Origin: a virus
Reading direction: 5' to 3' (one strand)
Length of the DNA stretch: 64,000 nt
IMG/VR virus record: IMGVR_UViG_3300007514_000005
Location: 8,009 to 72,008 of that record
Shown here one piece after another: positions 49,824-64,000 of this stretch. The position numbers and the translations under genes were made by a program. Below the pieces are notes generated by a model that made no database searches, had not been told where the DNA came from, and saw nothing but the letters and a program-made list of their open reading frames with translations. Numbering within the stretch: the first letter of the stretch is position 1; every line of letters begins with the position of its first letter.

Positions 49824-50108
49824 TTATAGTTTTCTTTTCGACCACGCAAACAAGCGGTTAAAGTCGGTATGAAAGCCATACTGAGACTCAGTAGCCCCCA
49901 TCACAGCCTTAGCAAAGCCTGTCTCTAACCACACACAGACCACATCAAACAGGTCGTCCGCGCTCATCTCAGTAGCGGCATAGTGTAAATCCCACAGCAT
50001 CATGCCTGTGGCCTCACCCATCTCCCCTATCTGTTTATCCATCCTTTTTACGAGCGCTTCCATGCGCTCAAGAGTCATCTCTATATCATCAGTCATTGAT
50101 AATATCAA
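49824..50108 (-). CDS. Hypothetical protein
   Basis: ORF track. Confidence 0.5.
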   Translation of the reverse strand: MILSMTDDIEMTLERMEALVKRMDKQIGEMGEATGMMLWDLHYAATEMSADDLFDVVCVWLETGFAKAVMGATESQYGFHTDFNRLFAWSKRKL

Positions 50109-50225
50109 AGTATTTTAACGGCTATAATCACCGCGAGAGCAAGTTTGGCCACGCTCGCCATGCTTCTGAAAAGAGCCATCGTTCCCATGCGGTCTAGCGA
50201 CCACAATTCTACGCCATCCCATACA

Positions 50226-50477
50226 TCACGAGCCATTTTTACCGCCCGCATCGTGAGGACTGTGCTTGAGTAGCAAGTCGTCAATAGTAGTCGAATCCCA
50301 TTCTATAACGGTGAAAATTGTGCCGGACTGTAAATGCACTTCCAATGTCGCATCGGTTGTCTCCACTATACCGGACACATCACGGCGGTCAATCCATGCT
50401 ACGCCTGTCGCTGTCCGTAGAGGCATCGTCCAATAGGAATACTTGCGCTCTCCTGTATGCACTATGTCTCCCATCAA
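50226..50477 (-). CDS. Hypothetical protein
   Basis: ATGA-coupled. Confidence 0.55.
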   Translation of the reverse strand: MMGDIVHTGERKYSYWTMPLRTATGVAWIDRRDVSGIVETTDATLEVHLQSGTIFTVIEWDSTTIDDLLLKHSPHDAGGKNGS

Positions 50478-50659
50478 CGGACACCCCCTTCGTAGTCCTC
50501 TACTATCTTAGTGCAACGCTCCATCATGGCCTCGTGCCTGTCTGCTGTGCCGTGTCCTAAGTAGCCCATGCCCTTGTTCTCCGCAATCCATTTCTTACAG
50601 CGCTCATACAATTCGGTGCTTATCTTACCACCGAACCAACCATCATCTTCCGAAGTCAT
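50474..50659 (-). CDS. Hypothetical protein
   Basis: Promoter motif at 50675-50690 and GGAG RBS. Confidence 0.6.
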   Translation of the reverse strand: MTSEDDGWFGGKISTELYERCKKWIAENKGMGYLGHGTADRHEAMMERCTKIVEDYEGGVR

Positions 50660-50693
50660 ATCCTGCTCTCCTTGTATCCGCGTATAAACCCAA

Positions 50694-52136
50694 TCACTCT
50701 AGCGTGAAATCGTAATTTGCTATTAAGGTAATAATACCTCTCACGCGCTCCCTGAATATGCTTTCCGCTTTTTCAATTGCGTTCAGCAAGTCCGTTCTCG
50801 CTGTCTCAGCATTCTCGTAAGCCTCTTGAGCCGCCTCTAGTGTTGGTAAAGAGTCTATCAATGCTTGACGCCCTTCCGCTACGCGGTCGCCTTTCCACTC
50901 CCACTTCCAATTACCTATTTTTTGAAGCCAATCTTCGCTTACTGTGTCGTCACTAAGGAAAGCCTTAGCATCATCAAGCATCTCTTGGGTAATCATCTCA
51001 TTATCTTCTGTAAAGAAGTAGTGGGGGGCGTAATTGCTTTTTGCATTCCCCACGCCCCTTCTGAAATCTTGCGCGGTAGGTGCGTTCGCCACGCCCTCTT
51101 TGTATTCCCAACCGTATATCGTGCCTATATCGCTCGCATAGAAATTATGGTGCTCGTTGTCGGTCTCGTTGCACAGGCGCTCCTTGTATATGTCCTTGCA
51201 AACCTTGTTGCCCGCGAGACTTTTTATCAGGGCTATTTTTATCTGCTCCTTAGTCGGTTCTTCACTTTGCAATCTTGCTAGGCACTTTTCGGTCGCTTCG
51301 GTATTATGCTCAGCCGTGTATATGAAGCGTAGAACATTATTTATATTCGCTATACTTTCTTGGTTCGTGCTAAAGTGGTCTGCTTCTACCTTCCACTCGC
51401 TCTCCTTCCTTTGGAACAAGACCTCTAACAAATCGAAGTTAATCACTTGAGCGTTTGCTCTCTTGTTGTATTGTGCGTCAGAAGTGGTGTTAGGGTTTAG
51501 GTGCGTAGCCGCATAGGAATCCCATGACTGCCTCGTTGAATTGTTCGTGACGAATGCCGCGCCCATGCGCTCTAATGCCCGCACTCGGCCCGCGAATTTT
51601 AACACAAAGTCCGTATTCATTTGACCGTATCCACCTACTGTGTTTTCTACTGTGGCTATTAACTCGGCCATTTCCCAAAACCCTGACCTGTTTTGGTTGC
51701 CCGCCTTGCACAGCGTTCTCAAGGCATTGAAGTCACCACCTGAGACGGAAGTTATTTTTCTTATGTCCGTCCTTCGTGTTGAATGGTAGCCTTCCTTGTT
51801 GCCGTAGGTTAGGAGCATTGCCTTTGAAAGAGCCGACTGACCCTTTTCATCTCTAACACTCCACATACCCCACTCACTCTCGGTCTTGCTCGCCTTGACC
51901 TTGCGCATCCTTTCAGCCCACTCTTCGTCAGCGACAATCTCTTCCCAATTTTCGGGGTCATCCAAATCGCTACTATTTATAAGCCTGAAATATCTTGCAT
52001 CAATCTCATTCGGCTTCATCCAAAAACCGGAGCAATCAACATCTTGGTATCGCACCCCAACGCTGTATTCTGTCGCCGTGTATTTTTCATCACTACCGTA
52101 TTCTACGGGCTTCTCAATTATTCTTTTCAATATCAT
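50694..52136 (-). CDS. Hypothetical protein (480 aa)
   Basis: Long ORF, no recognisable motif. Confidence 0.75.
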   Translation of the reverse strand: MILKRIIEKPVEYGSDEKYTATEYSVGVRYQDVDCSGFWMKPNEIDARYFRLINSSDLDDPENWEEIVADEEWAERMRKVKASKTESEWGMWSVRDEKGQSALSKAMLLTYGNKEGYHSTRRTDIRKITSVSGGDFNALRTLCKAGNQNRSGFWEMAELIATVENTVGGYGQMNTDFVLKFAGRVRALERMGAAFVTNNSTRQSWDSYAATHLNPNTTSDAQYNKRANAQVINFDLLEVLFQRKESEWKVEADHFSTNQESIANINNVLRFIYTAEHNTEATEKCLARLQSEEPTKEQIKIALIKSLAGNKVCKDIYKERLCNETDNEHHNFYASDIGTIYGWEYKEGVANAPTAQDFRRGVGNAKSNYAPHYFFTEDNEMITQEMLDDAKAFLSDDTVSEDWLQKIGNWKWEWKGDRVAEGRQALIDSLPTLEAAQEAYENAETARTDLLNAIEKAESIFRERVRGIITLIANYDFTLE

Positions 52137-52553
52137 TTACTCTTCCCCCTTAGAAATCTCAAATGTCTCTTCCCAATCGTATTTACAAAATTCAATCCAC
52201 TCTTCAAGAGTGAAGTGCTTATTCTCATCCCTATTGTTCTCTAGGTCTCCCTCTAGTGCGTCTAGTGAGCCTCGCATACTTTCTATCAGGGTTATAATTG
52301 GTAATTTCGCAGTCAATTGGCCCTCGTTCATATACATCGTGTATTGCGTTTTCATGGACTCCCAATGCTTGCGGTCGTAAATACTATACCACTTCGTGCC
52401 GTTAGTCTTTTTACCGTCTGTGCCTAGTATGTATGCCTTCCACAATTCTATTCCATTATCTTGGTATTGTTTGCTCTCAATAACTATTTTTTTGTTGTTG
52501 TGTCTGTTATAGTATATCTCACCCACAACCCACTCTTCTTTCTCGTTGCTCAT
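52137..52553 (-). CDS. Hypothetical protein
   Basis: Start MSNEK with GGTGG RBS and promoter at 52574-52606. Confidence 0.6.
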   Translation of the reverse strand: MSNEKEEWVVGEIYYNRHNNKKIVIESKQYQDNGIELWKAYILGTDGKKTNGTKWYSIYDRKHWESMKTQYTMYMNEGQLTAKLPIITLIESMRGSLDALEGDLENNRDENKHFTLEEWIEFCKYDWEETFEISKGEE

Positions 52554-52607
52554 ATTTCTTCCACCTTTTCTATCGTTTATTAACTTTTTTTTTCGACCAC
52601 GCAAGCA

Positions 52608-53317
52608 TCATCTTGTCTTAATGCCGCCCCCGCGTCCTCTATTGTTATACTTCGTTAGGCACGGGTCACATAGCCATGCTACCATGCCGCTTGCATTACG
52701 CACCATCCTCAAAGGCACGCCTTGTGCTTCGCACACAGGGCAATTACCTAGTCTGAATAAAATGTCTTCACTCATTTTTTTTAGCCCCCCCATTGAATTA
52801 GTCTAGCATTTATCACCGTTATATTACAGGGGTCACAACATCGTCCTTCCTGTGCAATCGGGTCGGGGTTGTGTCCATAACCTACTATGGCCTCTCCACA
52901 TATCACACACTCGTCACTCATGCTCTCAATCCTCAATCGTCTTGAACCACTCTTCTCGGTGGGGGTTCTTGGGCCACACTCCGGTTGCTCCACACGAGTA
53001 GCACCTAACACCGACCTCAGAAGGTTCGGGGTCAGGCGTCTCGCAGGTGCAAGTGTATGTCGTCATAACTCCACGAAATTCAAATTTTATTTTACCCGTC
53101 ATATTATTCACCTCAAGGCATCCTCAATCTCTTGCATTTCATTTTCTATCTGCTCAAGAGTCTCGCCCCACTCCATCTCGGCATGGTGGCTACCCTCTAT
53201 ACCGTAGGGAAGGTCTATGTCTTGCATCGTGTAAAGCAAGGTCTCTACTCCTTCCTTAGCCGTCTCTAACTCAGCGTAGCGGTCAGCAAGCGCCCTAATG
53301 TCGTCAGCAAAAGTCAT
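52608..53317 (-). other. Run of four tiny ORFs (52608..52793, 52781..~52922, 52926..53111, 53108..53317), three with CxxC Zn ribbons
   Basis: Closely packed ORFs with CPVC/CDPC, CVIC/CDPC and CTC/CYSC motifs. Confidence 0.55.
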
Positions 53318-53453
53318 TCATACACCACCTCAAATTCAGAAAGCGCCACGCAATAACGGGGAACAACAAGCCCATGACCTAGCAAAAAGTCACGAATCGT
53401 TTTTCTACCTTCTTCGTCATGTTTGCTAACATCAATTAGTATGTATTCGCCCA

Positions 53454-53762
53454 TCAGTAATCCCCCCAATCTTCTTCGTCTTCCGCGTCCTCGTCCTCTA
53501 TCCCGAACAGGTCGTAAATGTCCTCTTCATCGTAGAACGGGTCGTCCTCAATCTCTAACCAATCGTCCTCATTGGGGTTGCCTTCTGTCTCAGGAATAAT
53601 CCCCTGTCGGTATAACTCCTGCTTCTCTTCCTCGCTGTCTCTAATGGTCTTCCTACCGCGACACTCAGGGCATAGTCTAGCCCTTCCTGTCGGTGTGTAG
53701 AATTCATCACTACACGACAAACAATACTTCCATGTGCCTGTGTCCTCTTCGCTGTGTTCCAT
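53454..53762 (-). CDS. Zn-finger protein with very acidic tail
   Basis: CLSC...CPEC; D/E-rich C-terminus; own promoter. Confidence 0.65.
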   Translation of the reverse strand: MEHSEEDTGTWKYCLSCSDEFYTPTGRARLCPECRGRKTIRDSEEEKQELYRQGIIPETEGNPNEDDWLEIEDDPFYDEEDIYDLFGIEDEDAEDEEDWGDY

Positions 53763-53996
53763 ATTTATTGCTCCTATCCGTGCTACTTAAACCTTAGTAA
53801 TCGCCCACGCAAGCACCACGCTCCGGTGCGAGCGTAGGGGAGATTGTATGAACCCACAACAGTCCTCAATGGGCGGGGTTCAGCCACTCCCCCACACCCG
53901 ACTTTAGGAATGTGCGGCTGAGCCGCCCATCGAGCGTAGGTCGGGGTGAGGGTTCTAACCCCCACCCCGTTTGCGTTTTTTTAGGCCTATACTTTT

Positions 53997-54974
53997 TCAG
54001 GCCACCGTCCTTGCTACTGCGTCTGCCCATGCGCGTGTCTTAATGCGCTGTCCTGTGCCTACTATTGCACTCTCGGCCCTCTTCTCATTGACCTTACCAT
54101 CCTTCGTGGTAATCCAATCGTGGTCTATGTAGTCGCTCACGACATTCATTGCCGCCCAAAGCGTGCCTTCCATGTCGCCGACCTTGTTCTGAGGCTCGTC
54201 CTCAAGTGCTATAACGCGGTTTAGTATGTTGTTGCCGCGTGTAGCAAGTCCGTGTGGGTTGTTCTTTGAAATCAATTCTTCGTTGGTCTGAATCGGCAGG
54301 TGCTCAAGGTAGAATTCTACCCTCTCGCCAATATCCATTTCTACTTCCATCATGTTCTGAGCGTCCTTAGCCCAATCGTCTAGCATGGTGTTAGTCATGT
54401 TAATGGCCTTCATCATTTCCTCAATCGCCTCATCCATGTTTGAGGTGTGGCGAATTGTGAAAATTCCGTTGCTTCTGCGTGCCTGACCCATTACCATGTT
54501 CAATTGGTTGCCGCAAGCCATCCTCATTGTTGAGGGAATCACGCGAATACCGCTTGACCCGTCATGGCTGTTCATTAGCGTCATGTAGCCCTGCACAGGC
54601 TCGTTGCCGTTAATCAGAATCTCGTCCGGTAGGGCAAGGTTGAACCATGCCTTTGCGCCGTTATCTATTACGCCTACTTTTAGCCACTCTAGGTTGCCTG
54701 TCTGTGTTAGTCTGTGGGCCAATTCTGCAACATCTTGGTGTTGCTTCACATGGTATGACTTGCCTACTACTCCTAGACACTCGTTGGTGTCGTCTCGGAA
54801 TACTCCGCGCTGTCGTGCTGTTAGCATCTCACCGCGCTTATCGTAGAGCGGTTCAATAACCGCATCCCAAGTCAAGCCCGCATTCTTACAGACTTCTTCT
54901 GCTGTCTCTCCTAGCGCTTCATCCCCGAAGGAACCCCACGCCTCTTGTCTAATTCTGTTCGTCATTTTCTTCAC
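53997..54974 (-). CDS. DUF932 family phage/plasmid protein
   Basis: AGL-x-W, R-x-DT...LGVVG-x-x-Y, NSHDGS, R-x-x-C-x-N, RHT, GTLWAA-x-N. Confidence 0.88.
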   Translation of the reverse strand: MKKMTNRIRQEAWGSFGDEALGETAEEVCKNAGLTWDAVIEPLYDKRGEMLTARQRGVFRDDTNECLGVVGKSYHVKQHQDVAELAHRLTQTGNLEWLKVGVIDNGAKAWFNLALPDEILINGNEPVQGYMTLMNSHDGSSGIRVIPSTMRMACGNQLNMVMGQARRSNGIFTIRHTSNMDEAIEEMMKAINMTNTMLDDWAKDAQNMMEVEMDIGERVEFYLEHLPIQTNEELISKNNPHGLATRGNNILNRVIALEDEPQNKVGDMEGTLWAAMNVVSDYIDHDWITTKDGKVNEKRAESAIVGTGQRIKTRAWADAVARTVA

Positions 54975-55060
54975 TTCTCCTGTTCCGGCTCTTTGTTGTC
55001 GCCGTTATTTGCTCCATCGAACACCCGCATATAACTGTGTCGAAACGACCACGCAAGCAC

Positions 55061-55525
55061 TCAGACCCACCCCTGCTCAATCGCAAACAACAGGTGGTGA
55101 GAGACCCATAGCCCTGAGTCCTCAATCTCGGTCGGGCATATCCATATCATGTCGTCATGCTCTTCCGAGAGCACGACCTTAGACACATCAAGCCCAACGA
55201 ATTCAATGAAGTAGTATTGCTTATCCATCTCTTTGTCTATGTGGAATCCCAATTCTTTAGCGGGCATAGAAGCGGTGAGTCCTGTCTCTTCTTCTAACTC
55301 AATTATGGCGCATTCCATTGGTGTCTCTCCTTCCTCTAATTTGCCCCCTGCTAATTCGTAGAGGCCAATACAGGAAGTCTCCATAGGCGAGCGCCGGAGT
55401 AGGAGAATACGGCCCTCAGCATCACGCACAACGCACCCTGCCGCTTTCCTCACTAATCCCACCCCCTTGCTTTCAATTCCTTGTGTATCTCTCTTCCTCT
55501 TACGCGCGCGTGAGGGCTGACCCAC
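55061..55525 (-). CDS. Nudix hydrolase (MutT-like)
   Basis: Nudix box GGKLEEGETPMECAIIELEEETG; LSEEH. Confidence 0.9.
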   Translation of the reverse strand: MGQPSRARKRKRDTQGIESKGVGLVRKAAGCVVRDAEGRILLLRRSPMETSCIGLYELAGGKLEEGETPMECAIIELEEETGLTASMPAKELGFHIDKEMDKQYYFIEFVGLDVSKVVLSEEHDDMIWICPTEIEDSGLWVSHHLLFAIEQGWV

Positions 55526-55638
55526 TCAATGAGGTAGTTATCCTCATCTATGAGTCTGAGCACTAAGCACGCGGCTAATTCGCGCACTAGGTTCAATCTT
55601 TCTTCGGGCATCTCCGGTGTATGTGTATCTTCTACCAT
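55453..55638 (-). CDS. Small hypothetical protein
   Basis: ORF track; overlaps the Nudix 5' end, so boundaries are uncertain. Confidence 0.35.
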   Translation of the reverse strand: MVEDTHTPEMPEERLNLVRELAACLVLRLIDEDNYLIEWVSPHARVRGREIHKELKARGWD

Positions 55639-55936
55639 CTAGGCCTGTATTCGTGAATCGAGGACTTTCGAATGTCCATTTCGGACATTCGATTTTCCAC
55701 AGAATTTTTGCCTCTATCTTTCTTCTACGCGCACGCGCGAGGCGGCGGTGCAACGGGCATCCCCCTATAAACCTGCCGCAAACCCCCCAAATTAGCCCAA
55801 AAACGGCATTTGTAGCCAACAAAAACGACCACGCAAGCCCAAAATCGCTAGAAGGGGTCATAGAGCCATTTGTTTGCAAAACAGGTCATTACCTACCTGC
55901 GACCCCCTCTCGTGGCTATATATACGCTTAGAGACC

Positions 55937-56073
55937 ATTTGTAGCAAAGGCGATTTGTAGCAAGAGGATTTGTAGCGAACAGAAAAAAATTGTAGCGAAG
56001 AGATTTGTAGCCATGAAAATTTGTAGTGAAGAAATTTGTAGCCTTGAAAATTGTAGCCAACAAAATTTGTAGC
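55937..56073. repeat. Nine tandem direct half-sites A(T/A)TTGTAG(C/T) at 15-16-bp period
   Basis: Copies at 55937, 55953, 55968, 55988, 56003, 56019, 56034, 56049, 56065. Confidence 0.95.
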
Positions 56074-56164
56074 CACCGGACGCGGGCGCGCGGGCGCGCT
56101 TCGCTACAAATTGGTGCTTGAGAGGGCGAATCGGAAGGTTTATTAACTACCCCTATGTCTCACA

Positions 56165-56575
56165 ATTTGCCGCTCCTGTGGAGTGGTGTGCGTGACGGCG
56201 CGCGGGTATTGGTTGCTCGGAGACGGGTAGCCGTGTTGAGTCGGAGTCTAACGGGGAGACTCGGTAGTAGGGGAGTCGGGAGACGACCCGCGCTTAGGCA
56301 ATCTAACCGAGAAGAAAGTAAGACAACGCACTTCCGAACGGGAGCGGTGATTTGAGTAGGACTTGAAAGGATTACACTCGGCTGAAAAAGGGAATAGAGC
56401 CTACTCAATGATTGAGGGCAGGTCTGCTTCGGCGGACTTCGGTAGCACCGCACGCAGGGAAGGACTGCGCCCACCTTACGAGGACGCCTACGAGCCTTCA
56501 CCACTATATGATGCGTGATGCGCCGAGACACGGAAGTTAGAGGCTCGCGCCTTCGTCCGAGAACCAATATCCAAA
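56165..56575 (+). ncRNA. Candidate large structured ncRNA 1 (~410 nt)
   Basis: Promoter ATCGGAAGGTTTATT at ~56130; helices 56170-79/56338-47, 56204-21/56556-72, 56352-60/56400-08; UUCG hairpin 56421-36; no credible ORF. Confidence 0.7.
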
Positions 56576-56591
56576 TTTAACGGTGAAAGAA

Positions 56592-57020
56592 TCAAGCGCA
56601 CTTCGCGCAGACTACTCTCATTGGGTTGCTCGTAATATCCGCTTGCTTTACTTTTCTAGCGGTTGTCGCGGGTGCATTTTCGTTGCACCCAACACATACG
56701 CCTGTGCTACCGCGTAGCATCATCATAACAGGCGCGGCCTGAATGAATCCGGTCAAGTCAATTACTTTCACGGGTGTAGGAATGTTCTCTTTTCGGAGCA
56801 AGCGCCGCATCTTGTTGAGTCGGTGGTTCTCGCAGGTCGTTTTATGGCTTCGGCCTTTTATCGCTCCACAGCATTCGTGCCTCTCTCGTCCTTCCGAGAA
56901 TCGCCCGTTGCTTTTTCCGGTGCGTGCCTTGCTCTCGCCTGTGGCCTTGCCGCCCTTGCGACCTGCCGCTTGCTTTTGCTTGTCTGTGGCCTTGAATGTG
57001 CCGTCCTCATACCTGCGCAT
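56592..57020 (-). CDS. Basic protein with KGG motif and Cys/His clusters
   Basis: Start placed at 57020, just after the cassette-type promoter GACCGACAGGTTCATAAG (57060-57043); AAGRKGGKATG, CCG...H...C, CVGC...CAKC. Confidence 0.7.
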   Translation of the reverse strand: MRRYEDGTFKATDKQKQAAGRKGGKATGESKARTGKSNGRFSEGRERHECCGAIKGRSHKTTCENHRLNKMRRLLRKENIPTPVKVIDLTGFIQAAPVMMMLRGSTGVCVGCNENAPATTARKVKQADITSNPMRVVCAKCA

Positions 57021-57098
57021 AATAGGGTCACGCGGGCATTTGCTTATGAACCTGTCGGTCATCGAAAGGTTTAAGTGCAAACGCCTCTCCCCTCAATT

Positions 57099-57475
57099 TG
57101 TAAGTCGGCGGGGAACTGAACACTCCCTGCCTTGAAGCCATCGAGAACGCATGAGTGCATACGAGCGCCCTTCGGGGAAGCGACATGACGCAAGGCCCAA
57201 TGGCGGGTCGCGTGGAGACAACCAAATAGGGGGAATCTGCGAGCGAGTTAGGACTACCCTATCGGTGGCGAGGCAAAAGGGAGCGAAATAACGAAAGCCG
57301 TGAAGACGAACCGCACCTGCCTTGAGATGGGTTAGCGCCCATCTCTCGTAGGTTGCCCTCAACGGGGGTGAAGGTCGGGGTTGTTCAACCCGTCAGACTT
57401 GGTGCGAAAAGACCCGTCTCGGTCTCGCCCACCTTGCGGAAGGGTGGAGAACAGGAGCGAGGCGGGCAACCCATT
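57099..57475 (+). ncRNA. Candidate large structured ncRNA 2 (~380 nt)
   Basis: Promoter ATCGAAAGGTTTAA at 57061; AAGTCGGCGGG (57102) pairs with CCCGTCAGACTT (57389-57400); hairpins CCC-TTCG-GGG, GAGATGGG/CCCATCTC, CCACCTT/AGGGTGG. Confidence 0.6.
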
Positions 57476-57916
57476 ACTAATAAAGGTAAAAGAACCGCGC
57501 AGAAATTGTAGCAAGGACAAAAAGTGCGTGGGGATTTGTAGCCATGAGAATGTAGGCCCGCCAATTTGTAGCGAGCGGCGGGAGACAGGGGGTTAATAAA
57601 CCTTTTCTTTTAGGGGTAATTTGTAGCACACTCGGTGTGCCGCAAAACACCTACCCTGCATATCACACTAAGTGCATTTTCTACACCTACTTTCAAATTT
57701 GTAGCAAGTTTTTTTCACGCACCGGATAAAATTTGTAGCAAAGACTTTTTTGCGCGCGCAAAAATTTGTAGCAAAGGGCGAAAAACCGCCAAAACACTAC
57801 AAATTTGTAGCAAAGAGGCCTTTTTCTCATATATAAACAAAATTGGCTACAAATTTGTAGCAAAGGGGGGAATAAGCCACCGACAGGTTCATATAGGCAC
57901 ACCCTGTCCGCTAAAC

Positions 57917-58195
57917 ATGGACTACCACAAGATAGAGCCGGAACAAAGCGAGCAAATGAAGAAATTGCAAGCGATAGAGGATGCGGGAGAGTGTGCGAGC
58001 CTGACTTGCATAGAACACTTCTGTATGGTATGCGCGCGTAAAGGAATTGTAGGGCGTATAGTAAAGGGATGGAGAATTTGCGAAGCAAGCAAACTCTACA
58101 AGGCGCAATTACACATTGTTGCCGACTGTGAAAACTGCGGTGAGATTATGCACTTCAATTGGATAGACCGAGACAAGATTGAGGGGGGGTATTAA
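57917..58195 (+). CDS. Cassette ORF, Zn-binding (92 aa)
   Basis: Start after promoter CGACAGGTTCATATA; CMVC...CENC; the ORF-track upstream extension runs through repeats. Confidence 0.7.
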   Translation: MDYHKIEPEQSEQMKKLQAIEDAGECASLTCIEHFCMVCARKGIVGRIVKGWRICEASKLYKAQLHIVADCENCGEIMHFNWIDRDKIEGGY

Positions 58196-58200
58196 ATACT

Positions 58201-58320
58201 ATGACTGAGTGCGAAGAGTGTGGAAAAAAGGCGACCGTGAAAACATGGAGCATGGGAGACGAGATTTACATTGAGGTTTGTTGCGTGTATTGCAACCTGA
58301 CCGCCGCCTACGGTCTTTAG
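58201..58320 (+). CDS. Cassette ORF, Zn ribbon (39 aa)
   Basis: MTECEECGKKATVKTWSMGDEIYIEVCCVYCNLTAAYGL*, followed by a T-run. Confidence 0.65.
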   Translation: MTECEECGKKATVKTWSMGDEIYIEVCCVYCNLTAAYGL

Positions 58321-58451
58321 TTTTTTAGGGCGCAAAGAAATTTGTAGCAAACGCTTTTTCAACAGGGGGGATAACACACGCTACAAATTTGTAGCAAAGG
58401 GAAGAATGGAAGAGCGACAGGTTCATAAGGGCAAGCCTCTTCGGTCTAATC

Positions 58452-58631
58452 ATGCTAACAAGGAAGCATTACCAAAAGATTGCCGCCGCTATTGCGGCAG
58501 TTGATGACCCACAAGAGAAAGCCACAGCATATATGACGGTGATAGATATGTGCCGAGAGTCGAACCCAAGATTTGACGAGGACAAGTTTTGGGATGCGTG
58601 CGACTTCCCTGACGGGTTCAGGATTGAGTGA
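58452..58631 (+). CDS. Cassette ORF, small phage protein of the M-x-TRK-x-Y...NPRFD-x-x-x-F-x-x-AC type (59 aa)
   Basis: Hand translation; promoter CGACAGGTTCATAAGGG at ~58414. Confidence 0.75.
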   Translation: MLTRKHYQKIAAAIAAVDDPQEKATAYMTVIDMCRESNPRFDEDKFWDACDFPDGFRIE

Positions 58632-58632
58632 G

Positions 58633-58764
58633 ATGAGAGCGCCAACCTACGAAGAGTTTAAGGCCCACATTTGGCCCGCTTGGAGTGAGAAGGGGCAGAC
58701 CGAGCACGAGTGCGAAGAGGCCTACCTGTGGTTCATTCGCGGGCGCAGGTCTGTGAGGTGGTAA
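58633..58764 (+). CDS. Cassette ORF (43 aa)
   Basis: MRAPTYEEFKAHIW...; followed by a hairpin plus T-tract. Confidence 0.6.
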   Translation: MRAPTYEEFKAHIWPAWSEKGQTEHECEEAYLWFIRGRRSVRW

Positions 58765-58919
58765 GCGGGGGCGTTGCCCCCCTTCCCCTTTTTTCTATAC
58801 TCCTGAAAAATTTGTAGCAAAGAGGGCGTGAGGCGGTTGTGCCGTAGGCTACAAATTTGTAGCGAAGAGAAGAATGCTTGACCGACAGGTTGATAAGGGG
58901 AGAGCGAGTGGAGTAAAAT

Positions 58920-59153
58920 ATGGCGACAGTCATTGAGGACGAACAACCGGAAGGAATTATAGAAGCGAAGATGGGCAAGCAGGATAGCCTGTGGGTAGAT
59001 ACCCCACGCGGTCTCCTGCACATATTCGTGCGTGGAGACGGCACATGGAAGATGACCGCATGGAACAGCGGCGGTAAGAATGCACCCAAGATTACTAAGA
59101 GGAAGAAGAAGGGGCGCACCTACTACCACCTAAGCCAAGTCTTGAACGAGTGA
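58920..59153 (+). CDS. Cassette ORF (77 aa)
   Basis: Promoter GACCGACAGGTTGATAAG at 58880; downstream GGGGC-GAAA-GCCCC terminator-like hairpin. Confidence 0.75.
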   Translation: MATVIEDEQPEGIIEAKMGKQDSLWVDTPRGLLHIFVRGDGTWKMTAWNSGGKNAPKITKRKKKGRTYYHLSQVLNE

Positions 59154-59340
59154 TTACGCAACAAAGAGAAGGGGGGCGAAAGCCCCTCTTTTCTATACCC
59201 GTGAAAAATTTGTAGCGAAGAGCGTAAAGCAAAAACACCGACTGCTACAAATTTGTAGCATAGAGAGCGTAAAACGAGGGCGCGGTTGGCTACAAATTTC
59301 ATACCGACACCCTTAAGTAGTCACCCCCCCTGCGACAAAC

Positions 59341-59682
59341 ATGGAGTTAGCAATACAATACGACATAGAAGCGACAGCAATGAACCGCGTTGAAGAGGGA
59401 GCAATGGAGAGCGAAGCAGATTTCTTCACGGGGGCAATGGCTATGTATTTGGCTCTCAAGCCGAAGAGTGAGGAAGATGGGTCGTGGTGTCCGCCTTCTT
59501 GGATATTCACTCTCATGGCGGGAGATAGTATAGTCGAGAAAGTAAGGGAAGAAGACGAGGCCGCAATGGAAGCAGACAGGCAGATGGAGAGGGCCGAGAT
59601 TGCGGCTGAGAACGCTTACGATGCACAGCGCGAGATTAGCGCTGAGATGTGCTATGACGACAGGTATGACGATTACTACTGA
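59341..59682 (+). CDS. Cassette ORF, acidic (113 aa)
   Basis: Promoter-like CCGACACCCTTAAG at ~59304; downstream hairpin GGGCGGGA/TCCCGCCC. Confidence 0.75.
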   Translation: MELAIQYDIEATAMNRVEEGAMESEADFFTGAMAMYLALKPKSEEDGSWCPPSWIFTLMAGDSIVEKVREEDEAAMEADRQMERAEIAAENAYDAQREISAEMCYDDRYDDYY

Positions 59683-59872
59683 TTGAGCGGGCGGGAAGGC
59701 ATCATCCCGCCCCTCTTTCTATCGCTGGGATAAATTTGTAGCAAAGGGGGAATGAAACGCGCGGACATGAGGCTACAAATTTGTAGCGTGCTGAGCGTGT
59801 GTGAGAAGAATGGTCGGTTGGCTACAAATATCCTATCGGTGGGTTTAATAGGGGAAGCGTCTAGGGCGGTAT

Positions 59873-60205
59873 ATGTCTAACAGACGGGGAAACCGGAAGC
59901 ACAACCGCGACAGGTTTGAGGGCGCACGCCTAAGCGACTCGGAGCGAGTCGAGTGCGCTAATCTCATGGATAGCATACGAGCGCGCAAGCCTCAGCAATT
60001 CCGTGCAGGGCGAGACCTATTGGTTGTGTTGAAGGATACAGGAAAAGTAAGAGAAGTGGAAGGAAGCAGGGGCGATATGATTTGCTGTATAGTGCGCGGC
60101 GGTGTCGAGCACACTTGGATGATGCGAATGAAGTCTCAAGTCATGGGCAAGAGTGCGAAGGGATGCAAGCAAAAATTGCGAGTGGATAAAATTCTTTGGG
60201 CGTGA
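59873..60205 (+). CDS. Cassette ORF, basic (110 aa)
   Basis: Promoter TCGGTGGGTTTAATA at ~59836. Confidence 0.75.
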   Translation: MSNRRGNRKHNRDRFEGARLSDSERVECANLMDSIRARKPQQFRAGRDLLVVLKDTGKVREVEGSRGDMICCIVRGGVEHTWMMRMKSQVMGKSAKGCKQKLRVDKILWA

Positions 60206-60394
60206 AACAAATACCCCTCTTGATTTGTAGCGAAGATTTCTTTAGCGCCTACAAAAATTTGTAGCGAACACACATGGGGAAGGTGAATGCGCACGGGCTA
60301 CAAATTTGTAGCCAACACACCGCAGAAATACAGCGCGGCTTTGCTACAAATTCGCAATCGAAAGGTTTAATACCCCACCCCCCTTCCCCTAAAT

Positions 60395-60830
60395 TGTAGG
60401 TCGTTGCCGACCTATGTTCCCCTACGGGGGGGCGGGTGCTCATTGGAGTCAGGTGGCGTTGAAACGCATCATAAGCCCGTGCAATGCTCGCAGAAGATTC
60501 GCGGGGTTGGAAACACGGGGGGATGGTCTGCCTTACGACTCTTGTTGAACGGGGTTCTCTTCTAGCGAAGTCGCGCTTGCGCGGCCTCTCCTACGGAGAT
60601 TAAATACGCGGCGGTGTCGCCCCAATTATTCGGGAGTCGAGGGCAGGTATCGAGGGTGTGTAGTGTTAGGAAGAAAGGAGTTCGCAGGTGAAACACCATA
60701 AGTCTGAATATGTAATTCGCGCGCGTGGCTTGGCTTCAATAGTATGGAAAGCGGGGGTCGCGCGCCCCTGTCCTCTCGCAAAGAGGCCACCGCTCGGCAG
60801 GGCGGCCCAACATAGTCGGCACGGCTTACA
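60395..60830 (+). ncRNA. Candidate large structured ncRNA 3 (~436 nt)
   Basis: Promoter ATCGAAAGGTTTAATA at 60357; 5' TGTAGGTCGTTGCCGACCTATGTT pairs with 3' AACATAGTCGGCACGGCTTACA; two C-TACG-G hairpins and a CTTG-loop hairpin. Confidence 0.75.
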
Positions 60831-61181
60831 CCTTTAGTTTTATCGCTATAAAATTTGTAGCGAATTAAGTTCGTTGTTTTTCTCGCGCGCTGAAAGAATA
60901 AAACGCATGACTGCTCCAAATTTGTAGCAATTCTTTATTTCCTTCTATTATGTTTTAGAGTAATGCCCTTTCTATAACTACTATTGAAAGAATAGAATAA
61001 ATACAAATTTGTAGCGCAGTAGCCCGAATAATTCTTTTTCCTCTTTTCAGAATTATTGAAAGAATTACTACAAATTTGTAGCCAACCGTCTGTTGTGGGC
61101 CTTCGCGCGCGTCACCCGTGACGCCCTTTGCTACAAATTTCACATCGGCAGGTTCATAAGGGGAGACCCACTCGGTTGAAC

Positions 61182-61382
61182 ATGGACAAAAAGCAGAAGC
61201 GCTACATTGAGCGCATTGTTATGGCGGGCCTAAGAATGATTGGCGAGAACGATGAGGGAGAGCCGTTGGAGACCTTCGGCGACCTCTTCAAAGAGCATGA
61301 CGCGGTGATGGCTCTTCTCGGTCTTGACGAAGAGTCAAACCTTGTTTTCGGTGAGGAAGCAATACTGAAAGACCCGCAATGA
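61182..61382 (+). CDS. Cassette ORF (66 aa)
   Basis: MDKKQKRY..., after promoter ATCGGCAGGTTCATAAGGGG (61144). Confidence 0.75.
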   Translation: MDKKQKRYIERIVMAGLRMIGENDEGEPLETFGDLFKEHDAVMALLGLDEESNLVFGEEAILKDPQ

Positions 61383-61662
61383 GGGGGGGCGCGCACCCGC
61401 TTATAATGTTTTCTTTACCCCGTAAAAATTTGTAGCAAAGAGCACTTCTTTCTTTGTGCGCACCGCACACGCGGGCCGTTGCCTACAAATTTGTAGCGAA
61501 GAGCGCTTAACCCCTACGCCCTTGCGCCTTACTGTATCAGACTACAAATTTGTAGTGAATGGTGCGTCTGTTGCGCCCCCGCGCGTGCGTCACGGGTGAC
61601 TTCGCTACAAATAAAACCTTATAAGGGGATACCCACTCGGATAGAATAAGGAGCGAAAAAAT

Positions 61663-61812
61663 ATGTATGTATATGGCTTAGGAGACGAACAAGAACGACA
61701 TAATATGTGGGATGACGAGGATTTGTGGAAGGAATGCCCCGATTGCGGCGCATTTAACTTCGTGGAATACTGCGGCGGGGCTGACTGCCTGACCTGTGGT
61801 AAGCAGTATTGA
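61663..61812 (+). CDS. Cassette ORF, Zn ribbon (49 aa)
   Basis: ...KECPDCG...DCLTCGKQY*; AAGGAG RBS; downstream GGGG-GCAA-CCCC hairpin. Confidence 0.7.
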   Translation: MYVYGLGDEQERHNMWDDEDLWKECPDCGAFNFVEYCGGADCLTCGKQY

Positions 61813-61887
61813 GACGGATGGGGGGCAACCCCCTTCCCTCTTTCTTCACATCGGTAGGTTTATAGGCAGACGCCTACTCGGTTAGAA

Positions 61888-61973
61888 TGGTGGTAGCCAC
61901 TCCGCCTGTTAGCGCAGGTAGCAAGGTGAGTGCGGTTCGCGCGGACTGCGGGTGCAAATCCCGATACCGCCAC
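61888..61973 (+). ncRNA. tRNA-like RNA (acceptor stem + T-arm, non-canonical middle)
   Basis: GGTGGTA (61889-95) pairs with TACCGCC (61965-71) plus discriminator A; CGGG-TGCAAAT-CCCG T-arm; own promoter CATCGGTAGGTTTATAGG; T-tract after. Confidence 0.6.
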
Positions 61974-62153
61974 ACTTTTCTTTACCCCTAAGAAATTTGT
62001 AGCGAAGCGACCGTCTGTTGTGCGCGCGCAAAAGCGTCACCCGTGACGGCTACAAATTTGTAGCCAACCCCACCACAGCCCGCCGCCCGCGCGGTAAAAC
62101 CCCCCGCTTGGCTACAAATAAAAGATTATAAGGGGAGACCTGCTCGGTTGAGC

Positions 62154-62267
62154 ATGGACGAACCACGCCCATGCGTAAGAGACATGATGAATGCGACAGG
62201 AATGAGTAGAGAGGAAGCAGAAAGGGAGTATGAGGCAATGCTTTACGCAAAATACTGCCCGCGTTGA
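62154..62267 (+). CDS. Cassette ORF (37 aa)
   Basis: MDEPRPCVRDMMNATGMSREEAEREYEAMLYAKYCPR*; promoter GATTATAAGGGG...CTCGGTTGAGC-ATG. Confidence 0.65.
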   Translation: MDEPRPCVRDMMNATGMSREEAEREYEAMLYAKYCPR

Positions 62268-62542
62268 GCGGACTTGTCTTGCGCTTATAGTCTTTTTCAT
62301 ACCCCATAGAAATTTGTAGCCAAGCGAACCACCTTCTCGCGCGCGGCACGCCCGCACCGATATAACCTACAAATTTGTAGCGTATCGAGAAGCAAACAAG
62401 CGCGCGTATTCTTCTTACGGTGTATTGACTACAAATTTGTAGTCTGCCGTGTTTGCGTGCGCGCGTCACGCGCGTTTAAGGTTTGCTTCGCTACAAATAT
62501 CTATGTCGGCAGGTTTATAACCCCTAACCCCCTCGTCTAATC

Positions 62543-62656
62543 ATGGAAGAGAAGTGGGAAGTCGAGGAAATGTATTACGACAAGCAATACGAGCAATGGC
62601 GCGTTGTTCTACGCAACACAGACACAGACGAGACCCGATGGGGCTATGTCGAGTGA
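62543..62656 (+). CDS. Cassette ORF (37 aa)
   Basis: MEEKWEVEEMYYDKQYEQWRVVLRNTDTDETRWGYVE*; promoter TCGGCAGGTTTATAA. Confidence 0.65.
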   Translation: MEEKWEVEEMYYDKQYEQWRVVLRNTDTDETRWGYVE

Positions 62657-63309
62657 GCGGAGCGCGTTTGCGCTTATAATCTTTTCTTTAGCGCTGATAA
62701 ATTTGTAGCCAAGCGTCTTTCTTTCTTTTTCCCGCGCGCGTCCAGACCACACACCCTACAAATTTGTAGCCTGTCGAGCGTTAAGACAACGCGCGCTTTT
62801 TGTGTAAAGGTTAATAGACTACAAATTTGTAGCGAAGTTAGGTTAAACAAAGGCGCGCGCCCTTAACCCTTATACTCTTTGCTACAAATTTTACTGCGCG
62901 TGGGTCTCCCCTTCCTTCCTATTTATCCGTGTAGGTGTAAGGATATAAACCTTACGGTTAAAGAAATTTGTAGCCAAGAGGGGTTAAACAAAACGCGCGC
63001 GTGCGGGGTAAGGGGGGTTGGGCTACAAATTTGTAGCGTATCGAACCCCCTTCAGAAAAAAGAGTGTAAAGGGAACGCGCCCTTAGTAGGCTACGAATTT
63101 GTAGCGTAGGGGGCTACCCCCTTACGCGCGTAAAACAAAAACAAAGGGGGCTACAAATTTGTAGCCAAGATACCTACAACAAAACAACCGCGCGAAACAC
63201 AAACGCGCTACGCTACAAATTTGTCGCTTGTTGTAGTAGAAAAAATAAATCGCTTCGCTACAAATACGCAACCGATAGGACTATAAGGGCGGGCCTACTC
63301 GCTCTAATC

Positions 63310-63504
63310 ATGCTATACCTAAGCATGGAAGAAGCCGAAGAAATGTATGACGACATGATAGACGAATGCTACGGTGAGGTGAATGTTGGAGTGACCTTCA
63401 ACGCCTCGCGCGTATTGAGGGAGTTAGACCCGATTGCCTACCGATGCGGGTTCAACGACTACATGGACAGCCTGTTTGAAGACGGCTACACCCTAACCGA
63501 CTGA
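63310..63504 (+). CDS. Cassette ORF, acidic phage-type protein (64 aa)
   Basis: YDDMIDECYG...S-x-VL-x-x-x-DPIAYRCG-x-x-DY-x-D; promoter CCGATAGGACTATAAGGG. Confidence 0.75.
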   Translation: MLYLSMEEAEEMYDDMIDECYGEVNVGVTFNASRVLRELDPIAYRCGFNDYMDSLFEDGYTLTD

Positions 63505-64000
63505 TTACGACACGCGCCCGTGTGCGCTTGGACTTTTAAGGATTTCCACATAAGGCGCTTTTTAGAGCGAGCGCGGGAGATTTGTAGCAAGACGCTTTTT
63601 AGGCCTCGCGGGAATTTGTAGCAAAGGCGGTTTTTAAGCCCCCCGAAAATTTGTAGCCAACAGAAAATTTGGTGCTTCGCTACAAATTTGTAGCGAAGAT
63701 ATTGAAAAATCGTAAGTCCTGAATTGAACCTAGAATTGGCTACAAATTTGTAGCAAACCACGATTGCCGAAATTCAAAATCTTGGCTACAAATAGTCAAG
63801 GATTACCGGATTCCGGAAATCTGATGCACAGGCTCGCAGTATAGCGATTCTGAGCAATTCTGAAAATCCGAATCGAAAAACCCCTAAATTTCGCAAATTT
63901 AGCAGGGTCGCCGCCCGCAAAAGTGCGCCAAAAGTGAATTATTCTTGGTAGAAACTCGGAAAAATTGAGACCATTACCGGAATTCGGACAGGCTCGCAGT

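Follow-up and report, generated by a model that had tools for sequence, protein, structure and literature searches.

The virus and its cassette region

The sequence analysed here (the window, 64 kb in length) comprises bases 8009-72008 of a 72,008 bp virus record. Its source is a complete 72-kb tailed virus, the genome of which carries 119-bp direct terminal repeats. The window encodes tail proteins, a family-B DNA polymerase (PolB), DUF932 and NUDIX proteins and a Cpn60-family (GroEL-type) chaperonin, and RFC-like clamp-loader, ERCC4, PD-(D/E)XK, SAP and HhH domains are recognized by Pfam in its proteins. PolB is closest to the polymerases of haloarchaeal tailed viruses (23-25% identity over 86-98% of the length). 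The nearest cellular relatives found for the chaperonin are bacterial GroEL proteins with 36% identity, and in a search against a genome collection only bacterial GroEL was matched. The available text of Philosof et al. (2017; PMC5434244) describes magroviruses of Marine Group II archaea as having haloviral affinities and archaeal-type replication genes, and reports GroEL in magrovirus groups B, B1 and C. Because the PolB affinity, the archaeal-type replication genes and the GroEL fit this pattern, the virus is probably archaeal by gene content. It most likely infects archaea and is magrovirus-like.

Between 57.6 and 64 kb the + strand is laid out as a row of small cassette units. A typical unit starts with GCTACAAAT, followed 8-10 nt further on by purine-rich sequence and a TATA-like element, as in CGGCAGGTTCATAA. 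The ATG is located 21-23 nt past the TATA-like element in nine of the ten coding cassettes inspected by eye between 57.8 and 63.3 kb; in the tenth, the leader is longer and contains AAGGAG. The coding cassettes consist of an ORF of 37-113 amino acids followed by a G+C hairpin and a T-run, and cassettes end in one to three copies of the palindrome GCTACAAATTTGTAGC. When up to two mismatches are allowed, CTACAAATTTGTAG occurs 28 times in the window compared with 0.28 times expected, and 26 of the 28 matches fall within 57691-63753.

Archaeal leaderless mRNAs are laid out in this way, with a TATA box centred about 26 nt ahead of the start codon. As the gene content of the virus points to archaea, the cassette promoters, the activity of which is presumed from the sequence, are best read as archaeal TATA/BRE elements for leaderless transcripts. 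The cassette layout also provides a readable promoter and leaderless-start grammar for viruses with hosts that cannot be grown.

A cassette without a usable reading frame

One unit of this row, spanning 60343-60842, carries the usual signals (Table 1) and no ORF of the usual kind. The preliminary description had recognized a cassette-type promoter without an ATG in the usual place, and this is indeed what is found: GCTACAAAT and TTTAATA are present, and the position of the neighbours' ATG reads TTG-TAG (60394-60399). The T-rich end followed by a repeat spacer, which it had also reported, is equally seen. The longest + strand ORFs of the cassette encode 53 amino acids (TTG start) and 44 amino acids (ATG start), and the three + frames contain 4, 4 and 7 stops. 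The promoter-like and T-run signals, which are presumed to be active, are common to the neighbouring cassettes and to the homolog described below. A conserved AT-rich spacer lies downstream. The element is present in a single copy in the viral genome, and the cassette sits in the terminal repeat-rich region.

Table 1. Features of the RNA cassette, in window coordinates
Feature	Position	Strand	Remarks
Upstream half-palindrome GCTACAAAT	60343-60351	+	Precedes cassette promoters; the homolog has the same element in the same place
BRE/TATA-like promoter (GAAAGG + TTTAATA)	60360-60372	+	TTTAATA at 60366-60372; aligns with ..CAGGTTCATAA.. of coding cassettes
Predicted primary transcript, ~440-448 nt	60395-60842	+	Putative start ~23 nt past the TATA element; end at the T-run
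P1, 5' strand of terminal helix	60395-60418	+	Duplex energy; two two-sided compensatory changes versus the homolog
P2 hairpin CCCC-UACG-GGGG	60419-60429	+	CCC-UACG-GGG in the homolog
P3, 5' strand of long-range helix	60436-60451	+	Duplex forms in both full sequences
Variable central region of hairpin modules	60452-60640	+	Includes hairpins 60456-60467 and 60570-60585; differs among relatives
Conserved 3' subdomain	60640-60730	+	Motifs GGAAGAA and GCAGGUGAAA..CC.UAAG; inner hairpin GGU/ACC kept
P3, 3' strand	60731-60745	+	Duplex with 60436-60451
Hairpin with self-complementary loop CGCGC (60759-60763)	60751-60771	+	Homolog loop still has GCGC
Hairpin CCUCU-CGCAA-AGAGG	60772-60786	+	Identical in the homolog
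Hairpin CCGCUC-GGCA-GGGCGG	60790-60805	+	U-G to U-A in the homolog
P1, 3' strand	60809-60830	+	Pairs with 60395-60418
T-run TTTAGTTTTA, presumed terminator	60833-60842	+	Same T-run in the homolog; putative termination site
AAATTTGTAGC, first repeat of the inter-cassette spacer	60851-60861	+	Read in the sequence

Predicted fold of the RNA

The two ends of the predicted transcript pair with each other over 22 bp (-30.7 kcal/mol) to form a terminal helix P1, which includes two G-U pairs and is interrupted by two 1-nt bulges. This bears out the earlier proposal that the first ~24 nt pair with the last ~22 nt through G-U pairs and bulges. Of the 12,777 windows tested (every fifth position of the 64-kb window), the 3' strand of P1 pairs best with the 5' end; elsewhere in the window, the most favourable partner of the 5' strand reaches -24.6. 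The energy of the long-range helix P3 is -16.3 kcal/mol here and -18.4 kcal/mol in the homolog, which is ordinary, as 380 of 12,782 windows are as good.

Five internal hairpins with stable RNA-type loops had been listed in the preliminary description. All are found at the places given for them (60419-60429, 60588-60598, 60570-60585, 60456-60467 and 60772-60786), but one, CTCC-TACG-GAG, is a 3-bp stem with a 5-nt loop. The argument drawn from their loops is not distinctive: hairpins with a stem of at least 4 bp and a UNCG, GNRA or CUUG loop number two in the RNA, a count that is reached by 80 of 500 shuffles, so that there is no enrichment. The minimum free energy (MFE) of the whole molecule is -185.9 kcal/mol with a z-score of only -1.52, and seven of 100 shuffles fold equally well. 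Together with the lack of tetraloop enrichment, this speaks against the label 'highly structured'. The + strand had been favoured on the basis of G-U pairs and UNCG loops. P1 and P3 both use G-U pairs, and the fold of the + strand is 31 kcal/mol better than that of the - strand (MFE -154.4, z = -0.79).

Two further structural assignments were tried and rejected. An outer helix at 60680-60709 is attractive by eye in three sequences; it was not recovered by local folding and is tentative at most. The parts of a candidate 11-nt tetraloop receptor (UAUGG and CC.UAAG) are not on opposite strands of one helix.

Homologs and covariation

A metagenome scan gave at least 118 matching stretches. Among the 80 matches listed are two contigs of one metagenome sample (L073 and L105), which overlap by at least 120 identical bases and together provide a full homolog. 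Its promoter layout and T-run match those of the cassette. Identity between the two sequences is ~70% in the 5' domain (60394-60446) and in the 3' domain (about 60640-60842), and in the middle the homolog contains ~110 unrelated nucleotides in place of ~190 nt here. The ~22 nt between the TATA element and 60394 (60373-60393) are not conserved. Conservation sets in at about 60394, at the predicted start of the RNA and not in the promoter-proximal 22 nt, and we count this in favour of a non-coding RNA (ncRNA) gene.

A partial variant is provided by a divergent 263-nt contig from RNA run X18. Over 60528-60650 it shows one change only, 60571 U to C, by which a U-G pair (60571/60584) becomes C-G and the energy of the hairpin goes from -10.3 to -13.0 kcal/mol. 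Just before 60528 the sequence differs, and because its 24-letter loose end resembles 60455-60466, the stretch from about 60467 to 60527 is probably replaced in this variant. Ten substitutions and four single-base indels are present in 60650-60716. Judging from these alignments, whole hairpin modules appear to come and go around a kept core, like in many structured RNAs.

Covariation among homologs had been put forward as a check on the RNA, and it is seen in both long-range helices. In the outer 5' strand of P1 both differences are answered on the 3' strand (60397/60828, U-A to A-U; 60398/60827, A-U to G-C). In P3, as read from the duplex columns, A-U changes to U-G twice and G-C changes to U-A once with pairing kept. 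One change in P3 is one-sided (G-U to G-C), a C that is bulged here forms a G-C pair in the homolog, and no P3 pair is broken. P1 and P3 together thus contain five two-sided compensatory changes between the window and the homolog; the counts are small because there are two full sequences and one partial sequence among the matches listed, and the helices were selected with knowledge of both sequences. One-sided changes that keep pairing are found at 60753/60769 (G-U to A-U in the homolog) and at 60794/60801 (U-G to U-A). The CCUCU hairpin is identical in the homolog and is therefore uninformative on pairing, for or against.

The consensus fold of the aligned 5' and 3' domains has an energy of -69.6 kcal/mol compared with -44.5 ± 4.6 for column shuffles (z = -5.4), and none of 300 column shuffles is as good. 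For the 3' domain alone the z-score is -0.97, with 48 of 300 column shuffles as good. RNAalifold gives 73 pairs, none of them broken, partly by construction and with the unalignable middle included.

A conserved reading frame, which the preliminary description had pointed to as evidence against a non-coding RNA, is found neither in the full homolog nor in the partial variant. There is no + strand frame common to the homolog or X18 beyond what nucleotide identity gives. The homolog lacks the ATG at 60414, and its indels relative to the window are of 1, 2, 3 and 11 nt. Among shared frames, the one with the best score is on the - strand; it extends across the T-run and the palindrome and lacks a Met in both sequences. 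Part of it coincides with 60676-60695, a stretch in which the indels of X18 amount to a net -2 nt.

Beyond these sequences, no homolog of the RNA was revealed by blastn, whether against 50,697 phage records or against five IMG/VR relatives, or by scanning IMG/VR for exact 19-mers. When IMG/VR was scanned for a gapped 16-base motif, 49 stretches were returned, none with extended similarity in nhmmer; 11 of them matched at the seeded motif only (best E = 0.0099). Searches with nhmmer and blastn over the loci retrieved from relatives gave no further homolog, and the RNA was found in a single IMG/VR record. A 16-base palindrome scan of IMG/VR identified three related records (G003, G004 and G005), which are without a BLAST-level homolog of the RNA.

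Presence in RNA libraries

Twenty public runs from nine studies share words with 60300-60900, and five of these are recorded as RNA. The contigs of four runs (X3, X4, X5 and X18) were compared with 50000-64000; runs X9-X17, X19 and X20 have shares below 0.2. In X4 a 395-nt contig covers 60414-60808 and is the sole contig of this run over the 14 kb. The same contig, again the sole one, is found in X3, a run with the label metatranscriptomic WGS that may duplicate the data of X4. X5 contains a 339-nt contig (60469-60807), and X18, which comes from another study, contains the divergent contig described above. All element contigs fall inside the predicted transcript. The contigs of X3 and X4 share both end points and have no loose ends, a weak hint of RNA ends.

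Transcription had also been named beforehand as a check, and contigs of RNA-labelled libraries do cover the element; being assembled contigs and not reads, they are blind to strand, ends and level, and RNA-labelled libraries can also hold DNA. X5 has seven contigs over 50000-64000, with a depth of 113 on the element, 12.9 on 56169-56520, 10.8 on 59358-59658 and 2.8-4.25 on other pieces. As the runs were chosen with this element, contig depths and uncovered parts cannot rank genes. The depths in X5, and the fact that X4 has no other contig, point toward transcription of the element, as a hint only.

Neighbouring non-coding cassettes

Two further large non-coding units lie behind similar promoters at 56150-56590 and 57093-57485, which brings the number in this genome to at least three. 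The first is 79% identical to contig L073 over 340 nt, with variable hairpins. Its six special-tetraloop hairpins are the maximum among 570 windows, and both X5 and X18 have RNA contigs over this unit. The second is one of four alignable members of a family that includes the RNA in the syntenic slot of G004; the 5' hairpin of this family keeps the loop ACUGAACAC through three two-sided changes.

The same slot in G004 is also non-coding. It follows a homolog (61% identical) of the 110-amino-acid protein encoded upstream of our RNA, precedes the conserved AT-rich spacer and contains ~290 nt with ATG-TAA at the start, unrelated in sequence to the RNA described here. The idea of a start-stop signature, TTG-TAG here and ATG-TAA in the RNA cassette of G004, was abandoned, as it is not kept in the homolog. 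The basic 110-amino-acid protein always precedes an RNA cassette and has nine homologs. As a candidate partner it belongs to no Pfam family. Its structure model is confident (pLDDT 84.8), and no fold match was obtained (best E = 0.09; none of 500 at E <= 0.001 among the matches listed).

Interpretation and alternative explanations

We interpret 60395-60842 (+ strand) as an independent gene for a ~440-nt structured ncRNA of a marine tailed virus, most likely archaeal, in which the paired ends would stabilize an RNA acting in trans as a scaffold or decoy. We assign this reading a probability of roughly 0.68. That the unit is a gene for a structured ncRNA is highly likely, and we regard it as a real, previously unclassified viral structured ncRNA. 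Given such a gene, the odds are about even that it works as a scaffold or decoy, a mode of action suggested by the fold and its conservation. Self-assembly of the RNA is unlikely.

In the proposed mechanism, the host RNA polymerase together with TBP/TFB would start ~23 nt past the TATA-like box (at about 60395/6), and transcription would stop in the T-run, with few unpaired bases left beyond P1. The P1-paired ends could protect both termini and give a stable, abundant RNA. This RNA would act in trans as a folded particle during host takeover, binding or sequestering a factor of the host or the virus in the manner of a scaffold or decoy. The conserved parts of the RNA are helices, loops and short purine-rich strands, and a search for an antisense target in the viral genome gave no complementary match longer than 14 nt (best 14 nt, E = 0.098); for these reasons action as a folded particle is favoured over antisense action. 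The CGCG-type loop is kept while its stem changes, which would allow loop-loop self-association as in GOLLD, ROOL and pRNA, and self-association via this loop is a possible lead.

A wider reading is speculative and we hold it with little confidence. Marine archaeal tailed viruses would carry interchangeable early cassettes for large ornate RNAs, with three unrelated families here and others in the slots of relatives. The RNA at 60395-60842 would then be the counterpart of GOLLD/ROOL, an abundant self-closing particle that assembles via the CGCG loop in host takeover.

Of the alternatives, the one that survives best is a decayed protein cassette or a spacer that is still transcribed from its old promoter into a functionless RNA. 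The TTG-TAG where neighbours carry ATG would fit such a history, as would the unremarkable overall folding energy, the few homologs among the matches listed and the fact that cassettes are shuffled, gained and lost among relatives. Nevertheless, we consider decay improbable. The 5' and 3' domains remain ~70% identical although the promoter-proximal 22 nt and the centre have diverged, the changes in P1 and P3 are compensatory and no tested site in the 64 kb pairs better with the 5' end than the 3' strand of P1. The G+C content of the element is 57%, compared with 51-52% in the neighbouring ORFs and 45% in the window.

Helices that rely on G-U pairs, an opposite strand that folds 31 kcal/mol worse, a promoter and T-run that exactly bracket the element and the matching RNA-library contigs argue against a cis-acting DNA element. 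Such an element near the genome end (a replication origin, a packaging site or a landing pad for a regulator), with incidental transcripts, would be in keeping with the terminal repeat-rich location, where 26 of the 28 palindrome matches lie, and with the conserved AT-rich spacer downstream. It is nonetheless very improbable.

A very divergent member of a known family (RNase P, SRP RNA, group I/II intron, GOLLD/ROOL, pRNA or omega-RNA/PATE-like) has an equally slim chance. No match to any of the 4227 Rfam families is found in the whole window at gathering thresholds. At E <= 10 the only match in 60200-61000 is a chance miRNA outside the element, and at E <= 5 the region 55900-64000 yields nothing except palindrome-driven miRNA look-alikes. 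ARAGORN finds no tRNA and no tmRNA. The element thus matches none of the family models of RNase P, SRP, tmRNA or group I/II introns at gathering thresholds or at E <= 10; this agrees with the preliminary description, which had seen no hallmark of these RNAs, and the Rfam search that it recommended produced no strong match to remove the novelty. Archaeal RNase P and SRP RNAs are 300-450 nt long, with 5'-3' end pairing and modular hairpins. Our RNA resembles them in its size, its closing 5'-3' helix and its modular hairpins, and differs in that no model matches even at E <= 10. RNase P-like motifs noticed by eye (GGAAGAAAG, GGUGAAA and CGGCUUA) are in the wrong order along the molecule and lack a model match. 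According to the available text of PMC10544981, a PATE found in a haloarchaeal tailed virus is highly expressed and thought to act as an ncRNA. The element described here is a single genomic copy, and no reverse transcriptase, TnpB/IscB or RNA ligase domain is found by Pfam among 49 proteins, which speaks against a divergent member of a known family.

The RNA contigs stop at 60414 and 60807/8, in the inner part of P1, as could be the case for a precursor that is cut into smaller guide-like or sRNA-like RNAs, the long fold serving as a processing scaffold. However, the contigs are continuous over 339-395 nt, contig ends do not show RNA ends, and no conserved internal repeats or C/D-box pairs are seen by eye, which makes a precursor highly unlikely. 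The least probable explanation is an mRNA for very small proteins, such as those of the 44-amino-acid ATG frame 60414-60548 or the 49-amino-acid GTG frame 60688-60837: such frames are present and neighbouring cassettes encode proteins down to 37 amino acids, but the homolog has no ATG at 60414, no + frame is shared beyond nucleotide identity, the best shared frame is a Met-less one on the - strand hit by the net -2 nt indels of X18, and the indels are not multiples of three.

Large structured RNAs whose function is unknown are uncommon, and such molecules have time and again opened up new biology. If a structured ncRNA gene is the correct reading for this RNA and its two neighbours, uncultivated archaeal viruses devote several early transcription units to RNA products that are visible in ocean RNA libraries. 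It would also provide a concrete source for some of the unassigned marine RNAs, and probing or cryo-EM would have a defined molecule of 440 nt to work on.

Comparison with known systems

The RNA is outside every Rfam family, and its closest counterparts in type are the large RNAs of phages that have no known function. The preliminary description had suggested a new large viral ncRNA class. The lack of an Rfam match supports the novelty, but the 'class' consists of two full members and one partial member so far.

The pRNA of phi29, a tailed virus that has a family-B polymerase, is a structured RNA encoded in a terminal region of the genome, and it oligomerizes through loop-loop pairing. Our RNA differs from it in being much longer, in belonging to a genome with 119-bp direct terminal repeats and in having no match in Rfam, which presumably contains a pRNA model. 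IMES-type motifs are structured RNAs that are high in ocean RNA libraries and have no known source organism. These families are presumably in Rfam as well, and no Rfam family matched the RNA described here.

In its main-text description, a survey of IMG/VR (PMC10690425) reports intergenic viral RNA motifs found by covariation, of 29-151 nt and each from at least three distinct IMG/VR regions. By this description our RNA, which is ~440 nt long and was found in one IMG/VR record, is set apart from these motifs, with overlap of a sub-motif being possible. No account of RNAs like this one in magroviruses or other archaeal viruses, including viruses of marine archaea, came up in a literature search. 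The available text of the magrovirus paper (PMC5434244) does not mention promoters, non-coding or intergenic features, and that of PMC11706807 does not mention ncRNA, promoters, non-coding or intergenic features.

The closest parallels are GOLLD and ROOL. In the accessible part of bioRxiv 10.1101/2024.12.08.627333, these are described as phage- or prophage-encoded non-coding RNAs of several hundred nucleotides, of unknown function and in some cases very abundant, with conserved and variable parts and kissing loops, and often located near tRNA genes. Similarly, the RNA described here is a viral cassette with a conserved core, a variable middle and a self-complementary CGCG loop. A tRNA-like cassette (61887-61975) lies 1 kb downstream of it; this is tRNA-like only, being called by neither ARAGORN nor Rfam. 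In contrast to GOLLD and ROOL, our RNA matches no covariance model, is shorter (~440 nt) and stems from a virus that is probably archaeal. Moreover, the genome contains three unrelated large non-coding cassettes, and multimers are here only a candidate idea. The RNA is distinct from the large phage RNAs in host domain, in size, in sequence and as one of several unrelated RNA cassettes.

Further non-coding cassettes

Besides the target RNA, the predicted structured ncRNA of this virus, a second large non-coding cassette (RNA-A) and a third non-coding cassette (RNA-B) are present in the window. RNA-A is preceded by the TATA-like sequence GGTTTATTAA and carries UNCG, GNRA or CUUG loops on six of its hairpins, which is the maximum for any 446-nt window. 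It is 79% identical to positions 2711-3041 of L073, a metagenome contig that together with the overlapping contig L105 carries a full homolog of the target RNA, and hairpins are swapped between the two sequences. Contigs assembled from two RNA-labelled public sequencing runs cover RNA-A: one from run X5 spans 56169-56520, and one from run X18, which belongs to another study, spans 56258-56476 with a variant sequence.

RNA-B can be aligned with L073:3693-4115, with locus L038 (reverse strand) and with positions 49965-50262 of G004, one of the related IMG/VR records found by scanning for the cassette-flanking palindrome. In its 5' hairpin the loop ACUGAACAC is conserved and three two-sided compensatory changes are observed. 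The slot that is filled by the target RNA in this virus is occupied in G004 by a member of the RNA-B family.

Further large non-coding cassettes are found in G004 and in a second related record, G003; by BLAST, neither resembles any of the three RNAs in the window. The G003 cassette has a homolog in locus L108 (66% identity).

Non-coding units, adjoining proteins and spacer in the window and in related records
Feature	Location	Strand	Description
RNA-A	56103-56590	+	large non-coding cassette, ~440 nt, 56% G+C
146-aa protein	56595-57035	-	basic, Cys/His-rich; between RNA-A and RNA-B
RNA-B	57060-57485	+	non-coding cassette, ~390 nt, 58% G+C
110-aa protein	59873-60205	+	Arg-rich N-terminus; upstream of target RNA cassette
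AT-rich spacer	60862-61070	+	3' of target RNA; repeated TGAAAGAAT-like words
tRNA-like short cassette	61850-61990	+	product folds like a tRNA without D arm
Very short unit	62881-62970	+	no ORF; behind GCTACAAAT
G004 large cassette	G004:46535-47215 (= L018:6535-7215)		680 nt, many GNRA-type loops
G003 large cassette	G003:46390-46815	reverse	~425 nt, many GNRA-type loops

Adjoining proteins

The 146-aa protein lies behind a divergent TATA-like promoter and is conserved in G004 and G003, there too beside non-coding cassettes; it has no match in PHROGs. In this virus, as in the related records G004/G005, an RNA cassette comes immediately 3' of the 110-aa protein. In L073 one small extra ORF separates the two. 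Nine homologs were present in the protein collection searched. Its structure model is confident (pLDDT 84.8), and the fold search gave no match among the matches listed.

Palindrome array and short units

Every cassette is bracketed by copies of the palindrome GCTACAAATTTGTAGC or its halves: one half-site lies 5' of each promoter and another 3' of each T-run. Within the window, 26 of its 28 matches fall in 57691-63753, and the motif also marks related viruses in IMG/VR and metagenomes. This arrangement looks like a set of operators to which a dimeric regulator would bind. The AT-rich spacer is kept in G004, G003 and L105 even where the adjoining cassettes differ, and may have a role in regulation or replication.

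The very short unit contains a small hairpin (62927-62957, z = -1.8). The tRNA-like cassette is absent from the closest relative and is called by neither ARAGORN nor Rfam; it can also be read as a 34-aa ORF that continues through its own T-run. Read as a tRNA-like RNA, its product folds into an 8-bp acceptor-like stem and three arms: a long one, one of 6 bp, and one of 4 bp capped by the 7-nt loop UGCAAAU.
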